DNA of 64,000 nt from a virus. Positions 1,745 through 63,805 of the stretch are shown piece after piece; position 1 is the stretch's first letter, and every line of letters starts with the position of its first letter. The position numbers and the translations under genes were made by a program. The stretch is taken from the IMG/VR virus record IMGVR_UViG_3300021478_000016, positions 64,001 to 128,000 of that record. One strand, given 5' to 3'. The notes beneath the pieces were generated by a model. It was not told the origin of the DNA and did no database searches. It was given only the letters and a program-made list of their open reading frames with translations.

Positions 1745-1873
1745 TCATTCGCTGTCCTCGTCCTTCTTCTCGTCTTCTTCCTCGTCGGTTTGACCGCGAT
1801 ACATCCGGTCAACGTGCCGCTCGAACTCGCGTCCGCTGTTCTCGTCTTCGTCCTTGGTCTTCGGTCCAGGCAT
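1745..1873 (-). CDS. 42-aa highly acidic microprotein
   Basis: Hand translation MPGPKTKDEDENSGREFERHVDRMYRGQTDEEEDEKKDEDSE*; GAGG SD; promoter-like motif at 1915-1922. Confidence 0.6.
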   Translation of the reverse strand: MPGPKTKDEDENSGREFERHVDRMYRGQTDEEEDEKKDEDSE

Positions 1874-1967: not shown

Positions 1968-4900
1968 ATGGCCTACCTCGACCCGACCGATGCCTACCAT
2001 CACCTCCGGGACCGGACGCTGGAGGGTCTCCACTACCTGTTCGAGTCGCCCATCAAGGGCAAGGCACGGTCCCTCTCGTTGACCAAGCTCGAGGTGGAAG
2101 ATCCTCTGCGGGTGGACGACATCCGAGGACAGCAGCGCGCCAAGATGAACGGCGAGACCTGGGGAGCTCAGGTCTTCGGCACCCTCGAGATGAAGGACAA
2201 CCTGACGGGCGCCGTCGTCGACACGAAGCGCATCCGCCTGACGGACATCCCCAAGACCACTCGACGTTACAGCTACATCGTCAGCGGTCAGGAGTACCAG
2301 GTCGACAACCAGTGGCAGCTCAAGCCTGGCGTCTACGTTCGTCGCAAGGCGAACGGAGATCTCGAGGCCCGCTTCAACGTGACTGGTCGTGTCGGGCAGC
2401 TCAACGCCATCTTCGACCCCGCCAGCAAGCTGTTCAAGGTCGAGTACCGCAAGTCCAAGGGCTCTCCTCTCTACCCCTTCTTGAAGGCCATGGGAGTCGG
2501 AGACGACGAGCTCGAGAAGACCTGGGGCAAGGAGATCTTCGAAGCGAACAAGAACGCACCCCGCAGTGCCGGTGCCGTCGAGTCCTTCTACAAGACCAAC
2601 ACCGGTCAGGTCGCTCCCTCACATCAGGCGGCGGTTCAGCATCTGCACGAGATCTTCCTGGACGCCAAGATGCGCCCCGAGGTCAATGAGGTCACTCTCG
2701 GTAAGCCGGTCGAGCACATCAGCGGAGAGGCCCTGCATCTGGCCACCAAGAAGCTGCTCGATGTGCAGCGAGGCGCTCCCGAAGATGACCGAGACAACTT
2801 GGTCTTCAAGGACCTGCGGTCAGCCGGTGACTTCGCCTACGAGCGCCTGCGCGGGTCGAAGAGAACCATCATCCAGAAGCTCCAGCGGCAGCTCAACAGC
2901 ACGAAGACGATGGGCGTTCGTGACGCTGTGCGCTTCGACTACTTCAACGAGCCGGTCAAGCAGCTCTTCACCAAGACCTCTATCGCCAACCCGGCGACGC
3001 AGATCAACCCCCTTCAGATGGTCTCGACTGCTATGCAGACGACCATCATGGGGCCTGGTGGCATCAAGAGCGAGAGGAGCATCACCGAAGAGGCGAAGAT
3101 GATCAATCCTTCGCATCTCGGATTCCTCGATCCCATCAACACGCCGGAGAGCGACAAGACCGGCGTGACGTTGCGTCTGCCGATGGGGATGAAGAAGAAG
3201 GGTACGGAGGCCACGATCGCGGCCTACAACCTGAAGACCGGCAAGTTCGACGACCTGTCTCCCAGCCTCTTTCTCAAGAGCAACGTGGTTCTTCCCGACC
3301 AGGTCGACTGGAAGTCTGGCAAGCCCGTACCCATCTCCGCGAAGGTGAAGATGGTGGCCGAACACAACCGCATCGAGGAACGGGGCTTCGGCGAGGCCGA
3401 CTACGTTCTGCGTCACCCCAGTCAGCTCTTCAACGTCACGTCGAACCTCATCCCCTTCTTGCCCAACGACTCTGGTGGTCGCGCCGGCATGGCCAGCCGC
3501 CACATGGAGCAGGCTATCTCGCTGGTGCATCGCCAAGCACCGCTGGTCCAGGTGGCCGCCCCCACGGTTCCAGGTAGCGGCATCGACAGCTTCGAACAGC
3601 TCCTCGGCCACCAGACATCGCATCGAGCCCCGGCAGCCGGTACGGTCACCAAGATCAAGAAGGACGCCATCATCATCGATGGCTCCGATGGCCAAGAGCA
3701 CGAGGTGCAGATCTACCACAACTACCCGCTCAACGACGTCAAGAGCGTGATGCACTCTTCTCCACTCGTGAGGGTGGGTGACAAGGTCCATCGAGGCCAG
3801 GTCATCGCTGACACGAACTACTCGAAGGACGGCACGCTCGCTCTCGGTACGAACCTCCGTGTCGCCTACGTTCCCTTCAAGGGGTACAACTTCGAGGACG
3901 GCATCGTCATCAGCGACGAGGCAGCGAGGAAGCTCTCGAGCGTCCATCTGCACAAGCCATTGCTGAAGATCGAGGCCAACACCATCCTCGACCCCAGGAA
4001 GTTCTCGGTCCTCCATCCCGGGGTCTTCAAGTCCGACCAGTACGACAAGCTGGACGAGAACGGGGTCGTGCGCATCGGTCAGAAGGTCAAGCCAGGTGAT
4101 CCGCTCGTGGTCGCGATGCGTCCCTTCGAGCTCAAGGACCGCTCCGGTCTGACCGCGATGCGCAAGGCGCTCAAGGCACACCACAGCGACAACTCGGTCC
4201 GTTGGGACAGCGACTTCGAAGGCGAGGTCGTTGCTGTGCACAAGACGCCAGAGAAGGTCACCGTCCACGTCAAGACGGTCGAGCCGATGCAGGTGGGCGA
4301 CAAGCTCTCCGGCCGCCACGGCAACAAGGGCATCGTCACCAAGATCTTGTCGAACGACGAGATGCCCAGAAGCAAGACCGGCGGTCCCATCGATGTGCTG
4401 CTGAACCCGAGTGGTGTGCCAGGACGCATGAACGTGGGGCAGGTCCTCGAGACCGCTGCTGCGAAGATTGCTCAGAAGACAGGCAGGACGTATCTCGTCG
4501 ACAACTTCGACCCCAAGATCACCGATGCGCTCACTCGAGTGAAGGACGAGCTCAAGAAGCACGGCATCTCTGACACCGAGGAGCTCATCGACCCAGTGTC
4601 CCATCAGCCTCTCGGGCCGGCGCTCGTCGGACCGCAGTACATGCTGAAGCTTGTGCACCAGGTCGAGAAGAAGTTGTCGGTGCGCAGCGGCATGAGCTTG
4701 CCGGGTCTGCCCGATGCAGAGCCCTACGACACGAATCTCCAGCCTGGTGGTGGTGGGCACGCTGGAGGGCAGAGCCTGAGCCATCTGGCCCTCTACGCGA
4801 TGCTGGCGCACGGCGCGAAGGCCAACGTGCGGGAGATGTCGACGTGGAAGGCTGAGGGCAGAGACCCCGAGCAGAACGAGGCGAAGCGTTGGCCGTCGCA

Positions 4901-7900
4901 GCACATCGAGGTCTGGAAGGCCATTCAAGAGGGCACGCCTCTGCCTCCTCCGAAGACGACCTTCGCCTTCAAGAAGTTCACCGACATGCTCAAGGGGGCG
5001 GGCATCAACGTCGAGAAGCAGGGGCACCAGTTCGTGCTTGGTCCGCTCACAGACAAGCAGATCATCGACATGTCGAGTGGGGAACTCACTCAGGCGGATA
5101 AGTCGCCTGTGCGTGCCAAGACGGACAAGTCCGGCGAGTTCATCGTGATGCCTGGTGGTCTCTTCGACGAGAGGATCACCGGTGGTCATGGTGGAACGAA
5201 GTGGGCGCATCTGCGTCTGGCCGAGCCAGTGCCGAACCCGGTCTTCGAAAGTGCCATCAAGAAGCTGACGGGTCTGAAGGAGCAGCAGTTCGACTCCATC
5301 ATGACGGGAGACGTCGGAGTCGACCCAGGTACCGGCAAGATCGTGTCTTCGAAGTTGGGGGTCACAGGCGGCGCAGGCATCAAGGCGTTGCTCGACCGCA
5401 TCGACGTGAAGCGTGACCTCGAGGCTGCGAAGAAAGAGCTCACGAAGACCCCTCTTTCGAAGGCGGACAAGGTCCTCAAGAGAGTGAAGTACCTCACTTC
5501 GCTCCAGCGTCTCGACCTGAAGCCGAGCGACGCGTACATCCTGCACAACATTCCGATCGTGCCTCCAGTCATCCGTCCGCTCACGATGATGGCGGATGGG
5601 GGTCTGAAGTACGAAGACATCAACGGGCTCTACAAGCAGTTCGAGACGATCAACAACCGCCTCAAGGACCCGGTCCTGTCCACCAACCTGACGGACCGCA
5701 AGAAGAAGGAGCTGCGCGATGCCTACTACGATGGCGTGAAGGCCATCATGGGTGTCGGGACGGTGAACAAGGACAAGAAGGAGAAGGGCCTGCTCGATCA
5801 GATTGCCGGCATCTCTCCCAAGGAAGGCTACTTCCAGAGCGTCCTGACCAACCGTCGTCAAGACCTCACGATGCGGTCGACGATCGTGCCCGAGCCCTCT
5901 CTCGGTCTCGACGAAGTCGGTCTGCCTCGTGATGCTGCGCTCACCCTCTTCCGCCCGTTCGTCATCCGCCAGCTCGTTCTTCAGGGTACGGCTCCTACGG
6001 CCATACAGGCCACCGCCGTCTTGTCGAAGGTGCACAAGGGGCAGGACGATCCCATGGTCTGGCGTGCGCTCGAGCACGTGATGAACGAACGCCCCGTGCT
6101 GCTGAAGAGGGACCCGTCTCTGCACAAGTACTCGGTGCAAGCGTTCAAGCCCCGTGTCGTAATGGGCAACGCCATCCAGATCCACCCGCTCGTGACCGGG
6201 GGATTCAACGCCGACTTCGACGGAGACACGATGGCCGTGTACGTGCCCATCAGCCATGAGGCCGTGCGCGAAGCCCAGAAGATGTTCCCCTCGAACAACG
6301 TCTTCAACGAGGCCTCAGGCCACGTGATGTACCAGCCCACCCTCGAGAGCGCCCTCGGCCTCTACAAGCTCTCGATGGTGGGCAAGAAGACCAACGCCTC
6401 CTTCGCGACCGACCAAGAAGCCGTGGAAGCCCTGCATCAGGGCAAGGTCCATCACACCGACATCGTGAGCGTGGGAGGCAAGACCACTACGCCAGGACGT
6501 GTGCTGCTGGCCTCCGTCCTGCCTGATGACTTGCACAAGCAGGTCCTGCACGATCTGGACTTCCGAGTCGACAAGAACGGCCTCAAGTCCATTCTCACCC
6601 AGGTCGGCAAGAAGAACGCCGGTGCGTTTGGACGCATCGCTGACGACATCAAGAACCTCGGCTACGACGCCTCGTTCGGCGTCGTGAAGACGTCTCTCGC
6701 CAAGGGGGGCAACGTCGCCATCGGAACACACTCCCTCTCCCTCGATGACTTCACCACCGATCGCGGGACTCGTGATGGGCTGCTTCGAACAGCACGCGAG
6801 AAGGTGAATGGCATCACCGCAAACCCTCGCCTGAGTCAGTCGGAGAAAGACCGCCAGTCGGTCAACGTCTGGGTCGATGCCTCCGACGAGATGATGAAGG
6901 AGCACCGTCGGAAGGCGGAGGATTCCCCGTCGAACCTCTACCTGATGGCTCGCGCTGGCGTGAAGCCGGACTGGAACCAGTACAAGCAGATGGTGCTGGC
7001 CCCCATGATCTACAAGGACTCGTTCGACCGGGACATCCCGACAGCCGTCACCAAGAGCTACTCCGAAGGGCTCGATCTTGGTGGATACTGGACGCAACTC
7101 TACGGCGCACGTCGAGGCGCCGTCATGAAGGTCCAAGAGGTTCAAGAGCCTGGCGCCCTCTCGAAGCTGCTCTTGAACACAACGATGAACATGCTCGTGG
7201 AGAAGCCCGACTGCGGAACCAAGAAGGGCGTGGCCCTGCTGGCTAGCGACCCGGATGTGCATGACAGACATCTGGCGCAGGCGTTCCACATCGGGCATCT
7301 GCATGTTCCTGAAGGCACGCTGCTGACGCCCGACATCGTCGGGCAGATCCGCTCGGCCGACAAGAACGCCAAGCTCCTGGTTCGCAGCCCACTCAAGTGT
7401 GAGGCGGAACACGGCCTCTGTCAGAAGTGCATCGGCCCATCTGTCGAAGGTCAGAACTACGAGCTCGGGACGAACATCGGCGTCATCTCCGCGCAGGCCG
7501 TCGGAGAGCGTGCGATGCAGCTCATGCTCAAGGGGTTCCACACCGGCGGTGTCCGTGAGGCTGGTGGCGGGTCGAAGATCGTGAACCAGTTCGACCGGTT
7601 CAAGCAGCTCACGACACTACCTACCAAGATCCCCAATGCAGCGACGGTGGCGATGACCAGTGGACGCATCGAGCGCATCGTGCCAACAGAGACCGGAGTG
7701 GACATCTGGATCAACGGCACCCGTCACTTCGTGGGAAGGGACCCGGCAGGTAACGCACTCCACATGCCGCTAACCGGTGCGAACCGAGATGCCCGTTCCA
7801 TCCCCTTCTCGGCCTCAAAGATCGGAGACCACGTCGAAGCGGGTACGATGCTCAGCGACCCGAATCGCACGTCCGTCAACCCTCATGACCTGTACCGTGC

Positions 7901-8363
7901 GACGGGCAGCATCGACGAGGTCCAGAATCAGATCACCGGAGAGATGGACCGCATCTACAACTCCAGCGGACCGACGGTGCGCAGGCGCATGCTCGAGACC
8001 CTCGTGAAGGCGATGAGCAACCTCACCAAGGTCGAAGACCCTGGAGACCACCAGTACATCATGCGCGGCGAGTTCCACCCGACGTCGGTGGTCAAGAAGC
8101 TCAACGAAACGGAGCTGAAGGGCAAGATGCCCATCCTCCACCGTCCGGTACTTCAAGGCGTGGACGTTCTTCCGCTATCCTTGCAAGAAGACTGGATGGC
8201 GAAGATGCAGCACGCCAAGCTCAAGGACACGCTCTACGAGGCCGCAGCGCAGGGTCTCGTCTCCAAGATCCACGGACCACACCCCGTTCCCGGTGTCGCG
8301 TACGGCGCCGAGTTCGGGCTCCCTCCGCGAGAGGGCAAGAACGTCCAGCCCTTCCACTACTGA
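1968..8363 (+). CDS. rpoBC: Fused DNA-directed RNA polymerase beta-beta' subunit (phage-encoded, single chain)
   Basis: Beta motifs: GPGG...PSHLGFLDPINTPE, LIPFLPND, GYNFEDGI, GDKLSGRHGNKG, LNPSGVPGRMNVGQ, YMLKLVHQV. Junction near GINVEK/QGHQF (~5020). Beta' motifs: PPVIRP, LLKRDPSLH, FNADFDGD (~6204-6227), bridge helix YGARRG, RSPLKC...CQKC, trigger loop AQAVGERAMQLMLKGFHTGG. Confidence 0.97.
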   Translation: MAYLDPTDAYHHLRDRTLEGLHYLFESPIKGKARSLSLTKLEVEDPLRVDDIRGQQRAKMNGETWGAQVFGTLEMKDNLTGAVVDTKRIRLTDIPKTTRRYSYIVSGQEYQVDNQWQLKPGVYVRRKANGDLEARFNVTGRVGQLNAIFDPASKLFKVEYRKSKGSPLYPFLKAMGVGDDELEKTWGKEIFEANKNAPRSAGAVESFYKTNTGQVAPSHQAAVQHLHEIFLDAKMRPEVNEVTLGKPVEHISGEALHLATKKLLDVQRGAPEDDRDNLVFKDLRSAGDFAYERLRGSKRTIIQKLQRQLNSTKTMGVRDAVRFDYFNEPVKQLFTKTSIANPATQINPLQMVSTAMQTTIMGPGGIKSERSITEEAKMINPSHLGFLDPINTPESDKTGVTLRLPMGMKKKGTEATIAAYNLKTGKFDDLSPSLFLKSNVVLPDQVDWKSGKPVPISAKVKMVAEHNRIEERGFGEADYVLRHPSQLFNVTSNLIPFLPNDSGGRAGMASRHMEQAISLVHRQAPLVQVAAPTVPGSGIDSFEQLLGHQTSHRAPAAGTVTKIKKDAIIIDGSDGQEHEVQIYHNYPLNDVKSVMHSSPLVRVGDKVHRGQVIADTNYSKDGTLALGTNLRVAYVPFKGYNFEDGIVISDEAARKLSSVHLHKPLLKIEANTILDPRKFSVLHPGVFKSDQYDKLDENGVVRIGQKVKPGDPLVVAMRPFELKDRSGLTAMRKALKAHHSDNSVRWDSDFEGEVVAVHKTPEKVTVHVKTVEPMQVGDKLSGRHGNKGIVTKILSNDEMPRSKTGGPIDVLLNPSGVPGRMNVGQVLETAAAKIAQKTGRTYLVDNFDPKITDALTRVKDELKKHGISDTEELIDPVSHQPLGPALVGPQYMLKLVHQVEKKLSVRSGMSLPGLPDAEPYDTNLQPGGGGHAGGQSLSHLALYAMLAHGAKANVREMSTWKAEGRDPEQNEAKRWPSQHIEVWKAIQEGTPLPPPKTTFAFKKFTDMLKGAGINVEKQGHQFVLGPLTDKQIIDMSSGELTQADKSPVRAKTDKSGEFIVMPGGLFDERITGGHGGTKWAHLRLAEPVPNPVFESAIKKLTGLKEQQFDSIMTGDVGVDPGTGKIVSSKLGVTGGAGIKALLDRIDVKRDLEAAKKELTKTPLSKADKVLKRVKYLTSLQRLDLKPSDAYILHNIPIVPPVIRPLTMMADGGLKYEDINGLYKQFETINNRLKDPVLSTNLTDRKKKELRDAYYDGVKAIMGVGTVNKDKKEKGLLDQIAGISPKEGYFQSVLTNRRQDLTMRSTIVPEPSLGLDEVGLPRDAALTLFRPFVIRQLVLQGTAPTAIQATAVLSKVHKGQDDPMVWRALEHVMNERPVLLKRDPSLHKYSVQAFKPRVVMGNAIQIHPLVTGGFNADFDGDTMAVYVPISHEAVREAQKMFPSNNVFNEASGHVMYQPTLESALGLYKLSMVGKKTNASFATDQEAVEALHQGKVHHTDIVSVGGKTTTPGRVLLASVLPDDLHKQVLHDLDFRVDKNGLKSILTQVGKKNAGAFGRIADDIKNLGYDASFGVVKTSLAKGGNVAIGTHSLSLDDFTTDRGTRDGLLRTAREKVNGITANPRLSQSEKDRQSVNVWVDASDEMMKEHRRKAEDSPSNLYLMARAGVKPDWNQYKQMVLAPMIYKDSFDRDIPTAVTKSYSEGLDLGGYWTQLYGARRGAVMKVQEVQEPGALSKLLLNTTMNMLVEKPDCGTKKGVALLASDPDVHDRHLAQAFHIGHLHVPEGTLLTPDIVGQIRSADKNAKLLVRSPLKCEAEHGLCQKCIGPSVEGQNYELGTNIGVISAQAVGERAMQLMLKGFHTGGVREAGGGSKIVNQFDRFKQLTTLPTKIPNAATVAMTSGRIERIVPTETGVDIWINGTRHFVGRDPAGNALHMPLTGANRDARSIPFSASKIGDHVEAGTMLSDPNRTSVNPHDLYRATGSIDEVQNQITGEMDRIYNSSGPTVRRRMLETLVKAMSNLTKVEDPGDHQYIMRGEFHPTSVVKKLNETELKGKMPILHRPVLQGVDVLPLSLQEDWMAKMQHAKLKDTLYEAAAQGLVSKIHGPHPVPGVAYGAEFGLPPREGKNVQPFHY

Positions 8364-14493: not shown

Positions 14494-14738
14494 CGGGTGG
14501 CGAAGACCACACCACCTACATGCCAACCGGCGACCTCCGCGTAGCTCATCACGTACTCGCGAACGGCCGCCTTCGACTCGGAGGTGAGCGCATCCCTCAA
14601 CTTCAGCGTGACCACGTAGCCCTTCGGATGAGGGTCCATGAGGCACTGGTCATCGAATTGATCTCCGGCTCTGTTGAGAGAGCTCCAGAGCCCGGAGACC
14701 AAAGCCTGAGGGTCGCTCGTCTTCTCTGGAGGGAACAT
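14448..14738 (-). CDS. Small hypothetical protein on the opposite strand
   Basis: Most protein-like frame filling the gap before TerL; start uncertain. Confidence 0.4.
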   Translation of the reverse strand: MFPPEKTSDPQALVSGLWSSLNRAGDQFDDQCLMDPHPKGYVVTLKLRDALTSESKAAVREYVMSYAEVAGWHVGGVVFATRYIRFLLSRELSRAR

Positions 14739-16557
14739 GGGTCTCGAACCTGAGACTATTGGAAAGTTCGGGACGACGGAAGACGAGTACTACGATCTCG
14801 AAGAACTGGCCCCGGCCGACAAGAACTGGCTGGCAGAGCCTGAAGACTTCGACGACTTCATCGAGCTCGAGTACGAGAAGAACCTCGCCCCTAGGCTCAC
14901 GGAGATCTCCCTCTCCGAGTTCACCCACGTCTCCTTCCGCATGCCGACGGAAGACGGCGGCGCCTACGAGAACTTCTCGTTCAAGGGCCGTCGGCACATG
15001 GTCCGCATCTACGACACGCCGGCGAAGCGCATCTTGCTCGTATGCGCACGCCAGGTCGAGAAGTCGACACTGCTCGGCAACCGAGCCATCGCGTACTCGT
15101 GCCTCGTCCCAGGCTTCAAGACGCTCTACGTCTCCCCCACCTCGACCCAGACCAAGACCTTCTCGACGGACCGTCTGAAGGAGCCCATCGAGACCAGCCC
15201 GATCTTGCGCGCCTTCACGACGACGATGCTCTCGCAGAACGTCTTCGAGAAGCAATTCGTCAACTGGTCCAAGATCACCCTACGCAACGCCTTCCTCAAC
15301 GCGGACCGGACCCGAGGCATCCCTGCCTGGATGCTGGAAGTCGATGAGTTCCAGGACGTCCTTTCGGAGAACGTCCCGGTCATCGAGCAGTGCACCAGCC
15401 ACGCACCCGAGAAGTGGAAGCGCTTCTGTTACGCCGGCACGCCCAAGAGTCTCGACAACAACATCGAGTACTACCGGGCGCAGCTCTCGACGCAAGGAGA
15501 GTGGGCGGTCCCCTGTGACTCCTGCGGTTCGAGCGCCGGCGCTGGGCGGTACTGGAACATCCTCGGAGAGAAGAATCTCGGCAAGCACTCTCTCATCTGC
15601 GAGAAGTGCGGAAAGCAGATCCACCCACAGCACGACGAAGCGCAGTGGGTGCAGATGGTCAAGTACGACGCGAAGACCACGCCCTTCGAGAGCTACCGCA
15701 TCCCGCAGCTCATGGTCCCATGGAAGTCGTGGGACGAGATCATGCTGGATTACCTCCGGTACCCGAGGGACAAGTTCTACAACGAGGTCCTCGGTCTCTC
15801 GTACGACTCGGGCATGCGCCCGCTCACAATGGCGCAGGTCAAGGAGTGCTGCCTCGATCGGCTCTCGATGCACCCGGCCTACCTCGAGCGGCTCAAGAAG
15901 AAGATGGGCGACACCCCCATCTTCATGGGCGTCGACTGGGGCACTGGCGAGCATACGTACACGGTCGTGGTTCTCGGGGCGTACTTCGACATGGACTTCC
16001 GCATCTTCTACCTGCATCGGTGCACGGGGGCTGAGCTCGAACCACCTGTCCAGGAGAAGTTCATCGACGACCTCATCGAGCAGTGGAACCCGCTCATCAT
16101 CGGTGCGGACTACGGCGGTGGGTTTCACTCCAACGACCATCTCGTTCGCAAGGTGGGTCCGAAGAGGATCGCCAAGTTCCAGTACATGGCTCGCTCGAAG
16201 AGGAAGGTCGAGTGGGACCCGAAGCTCCTGCGCTACAAGGTTCACCGGACGGAGGTCATGAGCGACCTGTTCAACGCCATCAAGAGGCAGAAGCTCCACT
16301 TCCCCCGTTGGGTGGAGATGCAGAACCCGTACGCGCAGGACATGTGCAACATCTACGCGGAGTACAACGAGCAGCTCCGCATGATCATGTACGACCACAA
16401 CCAAGACCGGCCGGACGACACGTTCCACGCAGTGCTCTACTGCTTCCTGGCCTCAATGATCAAGTTCCCACGCCCGGACATCATCACGCCGCTGCGAGAG
16501 GATCAGAACCGTGGTCCGCTAGTTGGCGGATACACAGGGCCTATCTACCAGGGCTAG
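14737..16557 (+). CDS. terL: Terminase large subunit (lambda gpA-like)
   Basis: ARQVEKS (Walker A-like), LEVDEFQD (Walker B), AGTPK coupling motif, CDSC/CEKC, YNEVLGLSY, and RNase H-fold motifs MGVDWG and DDTFHA. Confidence 0.9.
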   Translation: MGLEPETIGKFGTTEDEYYDLEELAPADKNWLAEPEDFDDFIELEYEKNLAPRLTEISLSEFTHVSFRMPTEDGGAYENFSFKGRRHMVRIYDTPAKRILLVCARQVEKSTLLGNRAIAYSCLVPGFKTLYVSPTSTQTKTFSTDRLKEPIETSPILRAFTTTMLSQNVFEKQFVNWSKITLRNAFLNADRTRGIPAWMLEVDEFQDVLSENVPVIEQCTSHAPEKWKRFCYAGTPKSLDNNIEYYRAQLSTQGEWAVPCDSCGSSAGAGRYWNILGEKNLGKHSLICEKCGKQIHPQHDEAQWVQMVKYDAKTTPFESYRIPQLMVPWKSWDEIMLDYLRYPRDKFYNEVLGLSYDSGMRPLTMAQVKECCLDRLSMHPAYLERLKKKMGDTPIFMGVDWGTGEHTYTVVVLGAYFDMDFRIFYLHRCTGAELEPPVQEKFIDDLIEQWNPLIIGADYGGGFHSNDHLVRKVGPKRIAKFQYMARSKRKVEWDPKLLRYKVHRTEVMSDLFNAIKRQKLHFPRWVEMQNPYAQDMCNIYAEYNEQLRMIMYDHNQDRPDDTFHAVLYCFLASMIKFPRPDIITPLREDQNRGPLVGGYTGPIYQG

Positions 16558-39316: not shown

Positions 39317-40000
39317 ATGAGCAAGGGTTCTGGACTCTTCAGCGGGTACGCGGCTCGGCGTCCCCATGTTCTCGCAGGTCACGGTGAGGGTACGGAGATC
39401 ACCAACCTGGCAGCCGACGTCACAGCGTCGTTCGCCGGTCTGAAGGCGATCATCGTGGAGGAGTACTTGGCTCCGCACGCGGCCGTCACCAACGCCTTTC
39501 TCGCTGCGACGGCGTCGGTGAACGGTACGCAGACCATCACCTCGGCATCCGGCCTCGTTCCGGCGCCGGCGGCGCTGACGGCGGCGGGGCGCAACGTCAC
39601 ACTCACCGGTGGTGGGACCACGGGTCAGTGCCCGACGTCGGCGGCGGTCACCGGCTTCGACGCCGGGGGCAACGCGCAGACCGAGACCATCGCTCTGACG
39701 GCGGGTTCCGGGACGGGCGTCAAGGGCTGGAGCAAGGTGACCAAGGTCGTCCTCACGGGCGGCACGGGCACGGCTGGCACGACGGCGATCGGCTACGGGG
39801 TGGTCATCGGCCTGTCCTACGCGCCGAAGCTGCGCGCGGGACAGACGTCGCCCATCTTGCCGCAGAAGGAGATCGTGGACGGTGCAGTCCTCTCGCCGGC
39901 GACGGGTTCGATCGACACGGTCAACCACACGTACACGCCGGCCGCGGCGCCCAACGGGACGCACAACTACTGCATCGACTACGAGGCCGTCGGGAGCTGA
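39317..40000 (+). CDS. Thr/Gly/Ala-rich virion surface or fibre-like protein
   Basis: Composition; last gene of the structural block. Confidence 0.55.
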   Translation: MSKGSGLFSGYAARRPHVLAGHGEGTEITNLAADVTASFAGLKAIIVEEYLAPHAAVTNAFLAATASVNGTQTITSASGLVPAPAALTAAGRNVTLTGGGTTGQCPTSAAVTGFDAGGNAQTETIALTAGSGTGVKGWSKVTKVVLTGGTGTAGTTAIGYGVVIGLSYAPKLRAGQTSPILPQKEIVDGAVLSPATGSIDTVNHTYTPAAAPNGTHNYCIDYEAVGS

Positions 40001-61779: not shown

Positions 61780-62361
61780 TCACTGACCCTTGAGGCACGT
61801 GGCGGTTGCGACGAGCCCCATTCCCTGGACCAGGAGCTGTGAGTCGATCAAACACTGGAACTCGTCCTGGGTGTTCGCGTTGTCGGTGTACGAGGGGGCT
61901 GCGACGTACTGGGAGTTGTTCCCAGTCACGATGCAGTACCCGTGCAGCATGATGTCGTTGGCGTTGCAGAAGGCCACCGCCTTGCAGTCGATGCCCGTGG
62001 AGCACGCCTGCGGGTTGCCCGTCACAACGTAGCGGCCAGACTTCGTGAGTGGCGTACCAGCAGGTCCCTGAGGACCGGCAGGACCCTGCGGACCCTGGGG
62101 ACCAGGAGGGCCCTGGAGCGATGCCGCGTCGAACGTCTCCGTCGGGCCACCATCCGGCCCGATGATCTCGGTCACGCCCGGCTGCCCCTGAGGCCCCTGT
62201 GGACCTTGAGGACCGGTCGGACCTTGAGGTCCCTGCTCCCCCTGGGGTCCTGGGGGGCCGGCATCGCCCTGCTCACCTACGGTGCCAAAGGCCCCGCCAC
62301 CGCAAGCCATCGTGGACATGGCCAGAAGTACACTCAGAAACACATGGATCAGATTCTTCAT
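61780..62361 (-). CDS. Collagen-like lipoprotein
   Basis: Signal with lipobox-like STMAC; two (G-P-x)n tracts; Cys-rich C-terminal domain. Confidence 0.85.
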
Positions 62362-62420: not shown

Positions 62421-62774
62421 ATGAAGAAGACCGTTGTCGAGCTCGAGTGCTCCCGCTGCCACCGCAAGGAGTACGTCCCAGCCTCCGAGGCCACCCAAGA
62501 GACCTCTCCAGCCTTGGTCATCTTGCTGGACGGCAAAGAGGTGGCCAAGTTCGAGGACCTCTGCGCTCCGTGCAAGGAGGCTCTTGGCGGATACCTCGAG
62601 CAGATCTGCAAGCCGATGGAGAAGAAGTCTCCCAACCGCAAGAAGAAGGATGCTACCGAGCTCCTGGAAGCGATCGCCGATGCCAAGAGAGGCACGGGAA
62701 CCCTTCACAACGGTGAGGGGGCTAAGGAGAAAGGGCCAAAGCCCCATCCCCCAGTCGTGACTCGGTCGCCCTAG
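62421..62774 (+). CDS. Zn-finger protein (CxxC...DLCxxC)
   Basis: ECSRC...DLCAPC. Confidence 0.65.
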
Positions 62775-63235
62775 TTCAGCTCCTTGTCCTTCTTGGACAA
62801 GATCTTGGGTCTCAGGTCCATGTTGGTGTTGGCGATGAGCTGATCGAGTCTGTAGTCAGGGACACCGGCGATGCGTGCCAGCCGACGGACCTCTTCACGA
62901 GGCTTCCCACCAGCAATCCACTTGGTGAGCGTGCTGAAGAGAAGATGGTCGACGTCTGTCTGGAGAGCGTGGATGTTGCAGTGAAGGTTCTTCACGCTCT
63001 CGAGGTCTCCCTCGAGGATACGGACCTTCTGGTCCATGGCCGTCATGATGAGGCCTTCGAGGGCACGGGCGTTGTCGTTCGCGAGGTTGACGTACTGGTA
63101 GGTCTTGAAGGGGTCCGGTTCGGACAAGAGCATCTCGTGAGTGACGGCCTGCATGTAGTGGATGGTGCTCCCGAGCAAGAACTCGAGAGCGTGTTGTACT
63201 GCGTACTGCTTGTCACCAAGCTGGATGTGACTCAT
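62771..63235 (-). CDS. Hypothetical protein
   Basis: Start reassigned to 63235 on the basis of a GGAGG SD. Confidence 0.7.
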   Translation of the reverse strand: MSHIQLGDKQYAVQHALEFLLGSTIHYMQAVTHEMLLSEPDPFKTYQYVNLANDNARALEGLIMTAMDQKVRILEGDLESVKNLHCNIHALQTDVDHLLFSTLTKWIAGGKPREEVRRLARIAGVPDYRLDQLIANTNMDLRPKILSKKDKELN

Positions 63236-63253
63236 GGGGGTGCCTCCGAGCCT

Positions 63254-63261
63254 CTTATACC
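63254..63261 (-). promoter_or_regulatory. GGnATAAG promoter-like motif
   Basis: GATCC GGTATAAG AGGCTC GGAGGCAC. Confidence 0.75.
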
Positions 63262-63277
63262 GGATCACATAGATAAA

Positions 63278-63363
63278 TGGGAGGCGGGCGACCTTTTGGA
63301 GGCAACCAGCGCGACTGCGGTTTGACCCTGCGCGCGAATTAGCACGGGTCGTCCACACTCCCA
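63278..63363 (-). ncRNA. Candidate ~85-nt structured small RNA
   Basis: Closing stems TGGGAG/CTCCCA and GGACGACC/GGTCGCCC; preceded by GGCAAAAG-N6; contains GGTTGCCTCC. Confidence 0.5.
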
Positions 63364-63398
63364 GTTCTCTTTTGCCTCTATTGATCTCCCTTTTGCAG

Positions 63399-63436
63399 GG
63401 CTAAAAGAGAGGCTCCACCATGTGGTAGAGCCTCTT
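63399..63436 (-). terminator. Intrinsic terminator ending TTTTAGCC
   Basis: AGAGGCTCTACCA-CA-TGGTGGAGCCTCT-CTTTTAGCC. Confidence 0.8.
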
Positions 63437-63439
63437 GCG

Positions 63440-63805
63440 TCACGCACCCGGCTGACCTGCCGGCGGCATGGGCGCCGGCGCCATCAGACTGGCGAGCAGC
63501 GACAGCGTGACGAACCCGGTCGCGACCACGAGGATGACCGCGCCGCCGACGACCAGGACGTCCAGCGCCTGGCCCCAGCGGTTCGCCTCGATGAGGTCGA
63601 GCCGGACGATGTCCGCGATGAGCCGCTCCTGGTCGGACGACGAGAGCTGCTCCATGTTCTTGATGGTCTGGATGTCCCGCAGCGCGGACTTGCTGAGGAC
63701 GGGCGCGGCGCCGGTCGGCTTGGTGTAGACCTCGGGTTGGTCGGCGTGGCGCTCGACGTGACGGTGCTCGGAACGATCGGTGGTGTGCTGAGTTTCTGCG
63801 GCCAT
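63440..63805 (-). CDS. Hypothetical membrane protein (C-terminal TM); an in-frame upstream start is possible
   Basis: GGAGGCAAT SD before the ATG at 63805; hydrophobic VLVVGGAVILVVATGFVTLSLL. Confidence 0.65.
   Translation of the reverse strand: MAAETQHTTDRSEHRHVERHADQPEVYTKPTGAAPVLSKSALRDIQTIKNMEQLSSSDQERLIADIVRLDLIEANRWGQALDVLVVGGAVILVVATGFVTLSLLASLMAPAPMPPAGQPGA

Follow-up and report, generated by a model that had tools for sequence, protein, structure and literature searches.

A promoter-proximal non-coding element with an antisense copy of a shared leader in the small-gene array of a soil phage

The small-gene array and the gap that holds the element

The window, by which the whole 64,000-base stretch of analysed DNA is meant, corresponds to bases 64001-128000 of the 142,432-base record of an uncultured soil phage, and has a G+C content of 61%. 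The record encodes a large terminase (14737-16557) and a sheath-like protein; no terminase more than 30% identical was found in the cultured and GenBank phages compared. One relative, G001, of 190 kb and with a terminase that is 61% identical, was used for comparison.

The last 4 kb of the window, together with about 700 bases beyond it, contain an array of small minus-strand genes. Alignment and motif scans of the junctions of this array reveal a fixed order, consisting of a hairpin, TTTTAGCC, GATC, GGAATAAGAG, four bases, the ribosome-site leader GGAGGYAAC and an ATG; nine junctions were counted, in full or partial form. The terminators proper have loops of four bases, and the array promoter motif, of the GGTATAAGAG type, is not sigma-70-like in a promoter scan. 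With its promoter-plus-stem-loop motif repeated around small genes, the array is PeSL-like. In a Pfam search, a GNAT and a collagen-repeat protein were the only products of the array genes to match a family. Gene 61780-62361 (minus strand) encodes a hydrophobic amino-terminus, two collagen-type GPQ repeat blocks (Pfam Collagen, E=2e-8) and a Cys-rich carboxy-terminal part. The sole plus-strand gene of the array, 62421-62774, encodes 117 amino acids with a CxxC...CxxC pattern and is convergent with gene 62771-63235, with a four-base overlap; a terminator-like minus-strand hairpin (62745-62732) is located inside its coding sequence.

The element is located in a 204-base gap, with gene 63440-63805 on one side and gene 62771-63235 on the other (Table 1). 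The terminator upstream, the closing repeat, the TTTA tail and the sequence GGTTGCCTCC at 63298-63307, all of which had been given in a preliminary description of this locus, are present, as is, on the minus strand, the GGCAAAAG motif six bases before GGGAG. GCAAAAG is repeated at a spacing of 21 bases. At all other junctions, a terminator fills the slot that is taken here by the hairpin, with TTTATC and a complete first-class junction after it. The downstream gene has a coding score of 0.375, its own ribosome site and ATG, and near-identical homologues of 154-165 amino acids.

Table 1. Features in and around the 204-base gap, listed in the direction of minus-strand transcription
Feature	Position in window	Strand	Basis or remark
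Upstream gene	63440-63805	-	Its stop codon opens the gap
Terminator hairpin of 63440-63805: 12-bp stem, 4-base loop, then CUUUUAG	63408-63435	-	Fold of 63215-63440 and sequence
TTTTAGCC, common to other cassette junctions	63406-63399	-	Junction alignment
Second-class promoter-like unit: GCAAAAG (63396-63390), 13 bases, GGCAAAAGAG (63376-63367), spacer AACT	63367-63396	-	Motif recurrence; activity inferred
GGCAAAAG, then spacer AGAACT, then GGGAG from 63362	63376-63369	-	Sequence
Non-coding element with an imperfect inverted repeat at its ends and an interior of about 53 bases	63278-63363	-	Folds, coding score, Rfam and tRNA searches
5′ arm TGGGAGTGTGGACGACC	63363-63347	-	Sequence
Antisense block GGUUGCCUCC (GGTTGCCTCC in the preliminary description), antisense of the shared leader GGAGGCAACC	63298-63307	-	Occurrence statistics
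3′ arm GGTCGCCCGCCTCCCA, then TTTATC	63293-63278	-	Sequence
Intact first-class junction: TTTATC, GATC, GGTATAAGAG (63261-63252), GCTC, GGAGGCACC (63247-63239); ATG at 63235	63239-63277	-	Junction alignment, motif scans
Downstream gene, 154 amino acids, no known family; message the element would lead	62771-63235	-	ORF list, no Pfam match

The element, described earlier as intergenic, is non-coding: its six-frame scores range from -0.04 to -0.29 per codon, as against +0.20 to +0.375 in the cassette genes. Two frames, of 5 and 26 codons, begin 1 and 12 bases after GGGAG; with all frames negative, a coding region or micro-ORF was rejected. An amino-terminal extension of the downstream gene (reading frame 62771-63358) was also discarded, in view of the negative frames, the length of the homologues and the gene's own start signals. 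No Rfam family was found at gathering score in the window, and a permissive search around the element returned only noise (E>3, the C4 model being among the non-matches); the proposed Rfam/Infernal check thus did not yield a family match. ARAGORN found no tRNA, tmRNA or tRNA-like gene in the window. A mobile miniature element was rejected, as blastn shows a single copy in the 142-kb genome, and a decayed inverted cassette was rejected as well, as the similarity to a junction, judged by eye and by blastn, ends at the 10-mer. An invertible switch was rejected too: were the interior flipped, GGAGGCAACC would come to lie on the gene strand, but with no start codon after it. The alternative of a plus-strand decoy RNA, raised in the preliminary description, was dropped after a motif scan in which neither promoter class was found nearby on the plus strand.

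Pattern scans at the DNA level for the element and for the cassette found nothing related, the single match, L001, being to unrelated sequence. The homologues found for the proteins flanking the element are all 99-100% identical, and searches of viral and metagenome contigs via the neighbouring proteins, among them one of 1223 amino acids, did not provide usable relatives.

A probable second promoter class upstream of the element

The GGCAAAAG motif is probably part of a promoter of a second class, GCAAAAG-N13-GGnAAAAGAG-nACTGG, as judged from its recurrence. The preliminary description had predicted a transcript start at the first G of the closing stem, at the right distance from this motif, and the motif class supports such a start near 63362. 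There are six matches to GGnA[AT]AAGAG-N4-GG in the genome, always on the minus strand and always between genes. The more restricted AAAAGAG-ACTGG is present in two copies in the genome, the one at the element (GGCAAAAGAGAACTGG) and one at window position 1922 (GGGAAAAGAGTACTGG), and GCAAAG or GCAAAAG is found exactly 13 bases upstream of both. At 1922, the motif precedes a small minus-strand gene, in a divergent gap that must hold a promoter. The open reading frame behind it (1748-1873, minus strand) has 42 codons, is very acidic and is divergent from a polymerase-like gene of 2131 amino acids (1968-8363).

The relaxed form CAARAR-N13-GGnAWAAGA occurs three times in this genome, as against 0.2 times in shuffled sequence, and eight times in G001. 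The second-class sites in the window are located at 63396-63367, 63874-63840 and 1945-1907, all on the minus strand. In G001, sites of the form CAARAR-N13-GG(G/T)ATAAGA are found at 1601, 1967, 59974, 132789, 136233, 142811, 143727 and 175301, and the spacing in these eight promoter-like sites equals that of the GCAAAAG-N13 unit at the element. Three of the four copies in the phage studied here have AAAAG where G001 has ATAAG. The same architecture is present at window position 1922 and in G001, and the A in place of T is therefore a feature of the class and not a sign of decay. A further promoter-like match, at genome position 39866, lies partly on a stop codon, where one gene is followed by another in the same direction, and may be just an intercistronic hairpin. 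A perfect G+C-rich hairpin of 12 bp is located at genome positions 39803-39829, between two co-directional minus-strand genes and directly after the stop codon within GGTAAAAGAG. A U tract is missing on the gene strand, and the hairpin may act as a stabiliser between the cistrons or terminate transcription on the opposite strand.

These observations bear on a reading in which the element is a functionless leftover. Recombination between junctions, or decay of a lost gene, would have left tandem junctions separated by about 85 bases of filler, with the inverted 10-mer as a scrap of junction. The array does consist of repeated terminator-promoter-ribosome-site junctions, in T4-type phages repeats of this kind cause deletions and give rise to chimeric junctions (PMC2839356), and the fold of the element barely beats those of shuffled sequences. 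Relative to the first-class consensus, moreover, the upstream junction has 14 extra bases, which form two insertions in the alignment, and two substitutions. However, these deviations match the second motif class found elsewhere and not random decay, only the 10-mer resembles an inverted junction, and the 5′ arm begins at the predicted transcript start. A leftover is an explanation to which we give a rather low probability.

The leaders that follow second-class promoters in G001 come in two forms. In the short form, exemplified by UGAAGGAGGCAACAUG, the leader opens with the ribosome site; one of these leaders reads GGAGGCAAC, as in this phage. In the long form, of 31-40 bases, a 5′ GAAGGGAG pairs with CUCCC or CCCUUC, after which a new ribosome site follows; such hairpin leaders are found at 142830-142870, 143745-143785 and 175320-175352. 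A homologue of the element itself is absent from G001, where the syntenic array contains different genes. Like the long leaders, the element opens with a ribosome-site look-alike paired to downstream pyrimidines, in this case GGGAG with CUCCC, but its hairpin is enlarged to about 85 bases. Given this parallel, a leader of the next gene is the most economical reading of the element.

The promoter grammar is the sturdier by-product of the analysis, being common to this phage and its distant relative G001. In the first class, TTTTAGCC-GATC-GGAATAAGAG stands straight before the ribosome site, while in the second, CAARAR-N13-GGnAWAAGA is followed by a 5′ hairpin. For this phage, which has an RNA polymerase gene of its own, the grammar offers testable start sites.

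Complementarity and folding of the isolated element

The complementarity reported in the preliminary description was reproduced: GGTTGCCTCC is the exact complement of the 61644 leader, pairs with the 60103 and 60649 leaders with one G-U each, and pairs over 8-9 contiguous bases with the leaders of 62361 and 63805. In all, the block is complementary at 10 of 10 positions to the 61644 leader and at 8-10 to six other cassette leaders, which is beyond chance. In the window, GGAGGYAACC occurs four times (0.23 expected; none of 100 shuffles reaches four), in three gene leaders and, inverted, in the element. The 9-mer GGAGGYAAC occurs nine times across the 142-kb genome, in six leaders, in the inverted copy and twice inside genes; we estimate the chance of one such copy falling in the 204-base gap at about 0.001-0.01. 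Judged by these counts, a chance origin of the antisense 10-mer is unlikely. The element is real, promoter-proximal and non-coding, and contains a non-random antisense copy of the array leader. Of its 10 bases, 9 also fit GGAGGCACC, the ribosome site of the gene that follows the element.

As targets, the leaders present a mixed picture. In a duplex ranking over 623 candidate start regions, the seven other cassette leaders take ranks from 21 to 72; none is at the top, but every one of them belongs to the best 12%. In an unconstrained duplex scan of the genome, many G+C-rich chance duplexes outscore the leaders, and there are 36 other perfect 10-mer complements to the element RNA. The cassette leaders, proposed earlier as common targets, are thus good targets, but they are not outstanding ones.

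The arms of the inverted repeat make a stem of 16 pairs that has a single bulge, a single wobble and a single A.C mismatch. On the opposite strand, the wobble and the mismatch trade places and the arms pair equally well; because of this, the stem is uninformative as to which strand is used. When both strands were folded, as had been suggested, the closing repeat formed on each of them, but the z-scores were only -1.8 to -2.2, with 5-8 of 200 shuffles (2.5-4%) folding as well; by these predictions the fold is at best marginally above chance. The window contains 20 inverted repeats that have no gap, 13 or more pairs, no more than two mismatches and a span of 30-110 bases, so that repeats of a comparable kind are common in it. 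In the predicted fold of the isolated 89-base RNA, eight of the ten bases of the antisense block are paired with probabilities of 0.65-0.96 and opening it costs 5.3 kcal/mol; the unpaired part is the last CC, with the AAAA after it. The block, which in the preliminary description would pair with the leaders, is thus predicted to be mostly buried.

The function first proposed for the element was that of a trans-acting small RNA of about 89 bases, composed of promoter, hairpin and U-rich tail, in which GGUUGCCUCC would silence the GGAGGYAAC-led cassette genes together. The promoter is plausible and at the right offset, the element is non-coding, the antisense match is non-random and the cassette leaders rank well as targets, all of which would suit such an RNA. 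The best argument for a separate short transcript is the closing stem followed by UUUAUCUA, in the slot that holds the terminator elsewhere. On the other hand, the block is mostly paired, 9 of its 10 bases fit, in cis, the ribosome site of the next gene, and the leaders are not the top targets. In addition, the interior of about 53 bases and a run of only three consecutive U make a poor intrinsic terminator, and neither an Rfam match nor a homologue in G001 was found. We regard a trans-acting RNA as unlikely.

The hairpin could also be a back-up or two-way terminator, or an insulator, stopping read-through from gene 63440-63805 as well as antisense transcription from the plus-strand gene 62421-62774. 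On both strands, the long stem is flanked by A-rich sequence on one side and by U-rich sequence on the other; it is followed by GTTCTCTTTTGCC on the plus strand and by TTTATCTA on the minus strand, and the arms pair equally on both. The 3′ arm also aligns with the 3′ halves of the terminators of other junctions. The element has a stem and, with 5 T in 8, a U-rich tail; it does not have the short loop of an intrinsic terminator, its interior of about 53 bases contrasting with the four-base loops of the real terminators of the array. A terminator scan lists none at the element, and a good terminator is already present 45 bases upstream. We hold a terminator function to be improbable.

A further reading is that of an inverted repeat bound by a protein at the DNA level, or of a cis-acting RNA that modifies the polymerase, as in put-like antitermination. 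It would account for the symmetry on both strands, for the recurrence of GCAAAAG at a 21-base spacing and for the promoter-proximal position in an array with a terminator after each gene. However, the arms are about 53 bases apart, unlike in operators, the element is single-copy, no motif is common to it and the other leaders, and it has no Rfam match. This reading seems to us very improbable indeed.

A possible cis-acting leader and its known analogues

The best explanation, which we put forward tentatively and at somewhat less than even chances, is that the element is a structured 5′ leader acting in cis on gene 62771-63235. Minus-strand transcription from the second-class promoter (GCAAAAG-N13-GGCAAAAGAG) would make an alternative, longer message for this gene. 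The first bases, GGGAG, which look like a ribosome site, would pair with CUCCC to form a promoter-proximal stem-loop, and the UGCCUCC and GCCUC blocks would find cis partners, GGAGGCA and GAGGC, in the start region of the gene. Long transcripts would thereby have their ribosome site masked, while those initiated at the proximal GGTATAAGAG promoter, in which the pyrimidine blocks are missing, would stay open. We infer the promoter activity, the transcript ends, the fold that is formed and the effect on translation or stability.

The minimum-energy fold of the full leader (63363-63233), at -49.1 kcal/mol, is not the closed hairpin. In it, UGCCUCC (63304-63298) is paired with GGAGGCA (63247-63241) and GCCUC (63285-63281) with GAGGC (63254-63250), and GGTATAAGAG is located in the loop between the two arms, an arrangement of the type found in T4 gene e and I-TevI. 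The state closed by the inverted repeat, at -47.3 kcal/mol, is 1.8 kcal/mol above the minimum, and its share ranges from 2% to 46%, depending on the 3′ end chosen. The summed probability of pairing between block and ribosome site likewise varies with the chosen transcript ends, from 0.02 to 8.3. A cis role is at least as good an explanation as a trans role, because the block fits the leader of its own gene at 9 of 10 positions and is paired with it in the minimum-energy fold.

Several points count against the cis-acting leader. In the fold predictions, the masking would not be distinctive: the pairing probability of the ribosome site of 62771-63235 is 0.65 in the long and 0.70 in the short transcript, so that the two are alike, and these values are like those of other junctions. 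The 10-mer is perfect to the leader of another gene and matches its own at 9 of 10 positions. The hairpin with TTTATC in the terminator slot would, as a sequence arrangement, fit a separate short transcript equally well. In favour of such a leader, a textbook arrangement of the I-TevI type is found elsewhere in the genome, at 132693-132732 on the plus strand (10261-10300 of L013). There, directly ahead of an ATG, GACCTCCG and CGGAGGTC pair with each other and enclose the promoter motif GGAATAAG, and the pairing probability of the ribosome site is 1.0 on long transcripts.

The two functions may also be combined. One cassette of the array would then encode not a protein but an RNA, made from its own second-class promoter. 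When the promoter class changes, this RNA would silence the whole gene class in trans and, in cis, the gene that follows it. We think it decidedly unlikely that both would hold.

If the element acts in cis, it is another phage case of a ribosome site hidden on long transcripts, which would help the annotation of this lineage and would be unsurprising. If it acts in trans, it would amount to an RNA-based shut-off of a whole class of early genes, a job done in T4 by a protein, RegB. This endoribonuclease brings about the class-wide shut-off of early messages via their common ribosome site GGAG (PMC3014915). RegB is a protein that cuts the site, while the element would be an RNA that pairs with it, and the likeness is functional only.

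The virulent Pseudomonas phages offer a further comparison, with 29 candidate non-coding RNAs derived from 5′ untranslated regions detected in six phages by ONT-cappable-seq (PMC10914365). Those RNAs were observed as transcripts and their function is unknown, whereas the element is predicted from sequence alone. In the c4 antisense RNA of phages P1 and P7, segments of a small RNA pair around a ribosome binding site and block translation (PMC12197685). The c4 RNA controls one operon, with its pairing segments in loops; the element, in contrast, would address a whole class of leaders with a segment that is mostly paired, and does not match c4 or any other family in Rfam.

In the PeSL cassettes of T4-type phages, small genes of unknown families are bracketed by a promoter-plus-terminator motif, and shuffling, deletion and chimeric junctions occur (PMC2839356; PMC4122927). 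Unlike in PeSLs, the motif in the present array is not sigma-70-like, and the junction also fixes the leader with the ribosome site. An enclosed non-coding unit with an antisense copy of the leader has not been reported for PeSLs.

The T4 genes e, soc, 49 and I-TevI have hidden starts: on transcripts that begin far upstream, an upstream segment masks the ribosome site, while a proximal promoter gives an open message (PMC3014915). As in these genes, the element region has complementary segments on either side of a promoter, with UGCCUCC and GCCUC upstream and GGAGGCA and GAGGC downstream of GGTATAAGAG. It differs from them in that a dedicated promoter only about 115 bases upstream, and not read-through of earlier operons, would give rise to the long transcript, and in that the predicted masking is not robust. 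By analogy, the functional readings would each have a known counterpart, the hidden starts of T4 for a cis-acting leader, c4 for a trans-acting RNA and the PeSL cassettes for the array.
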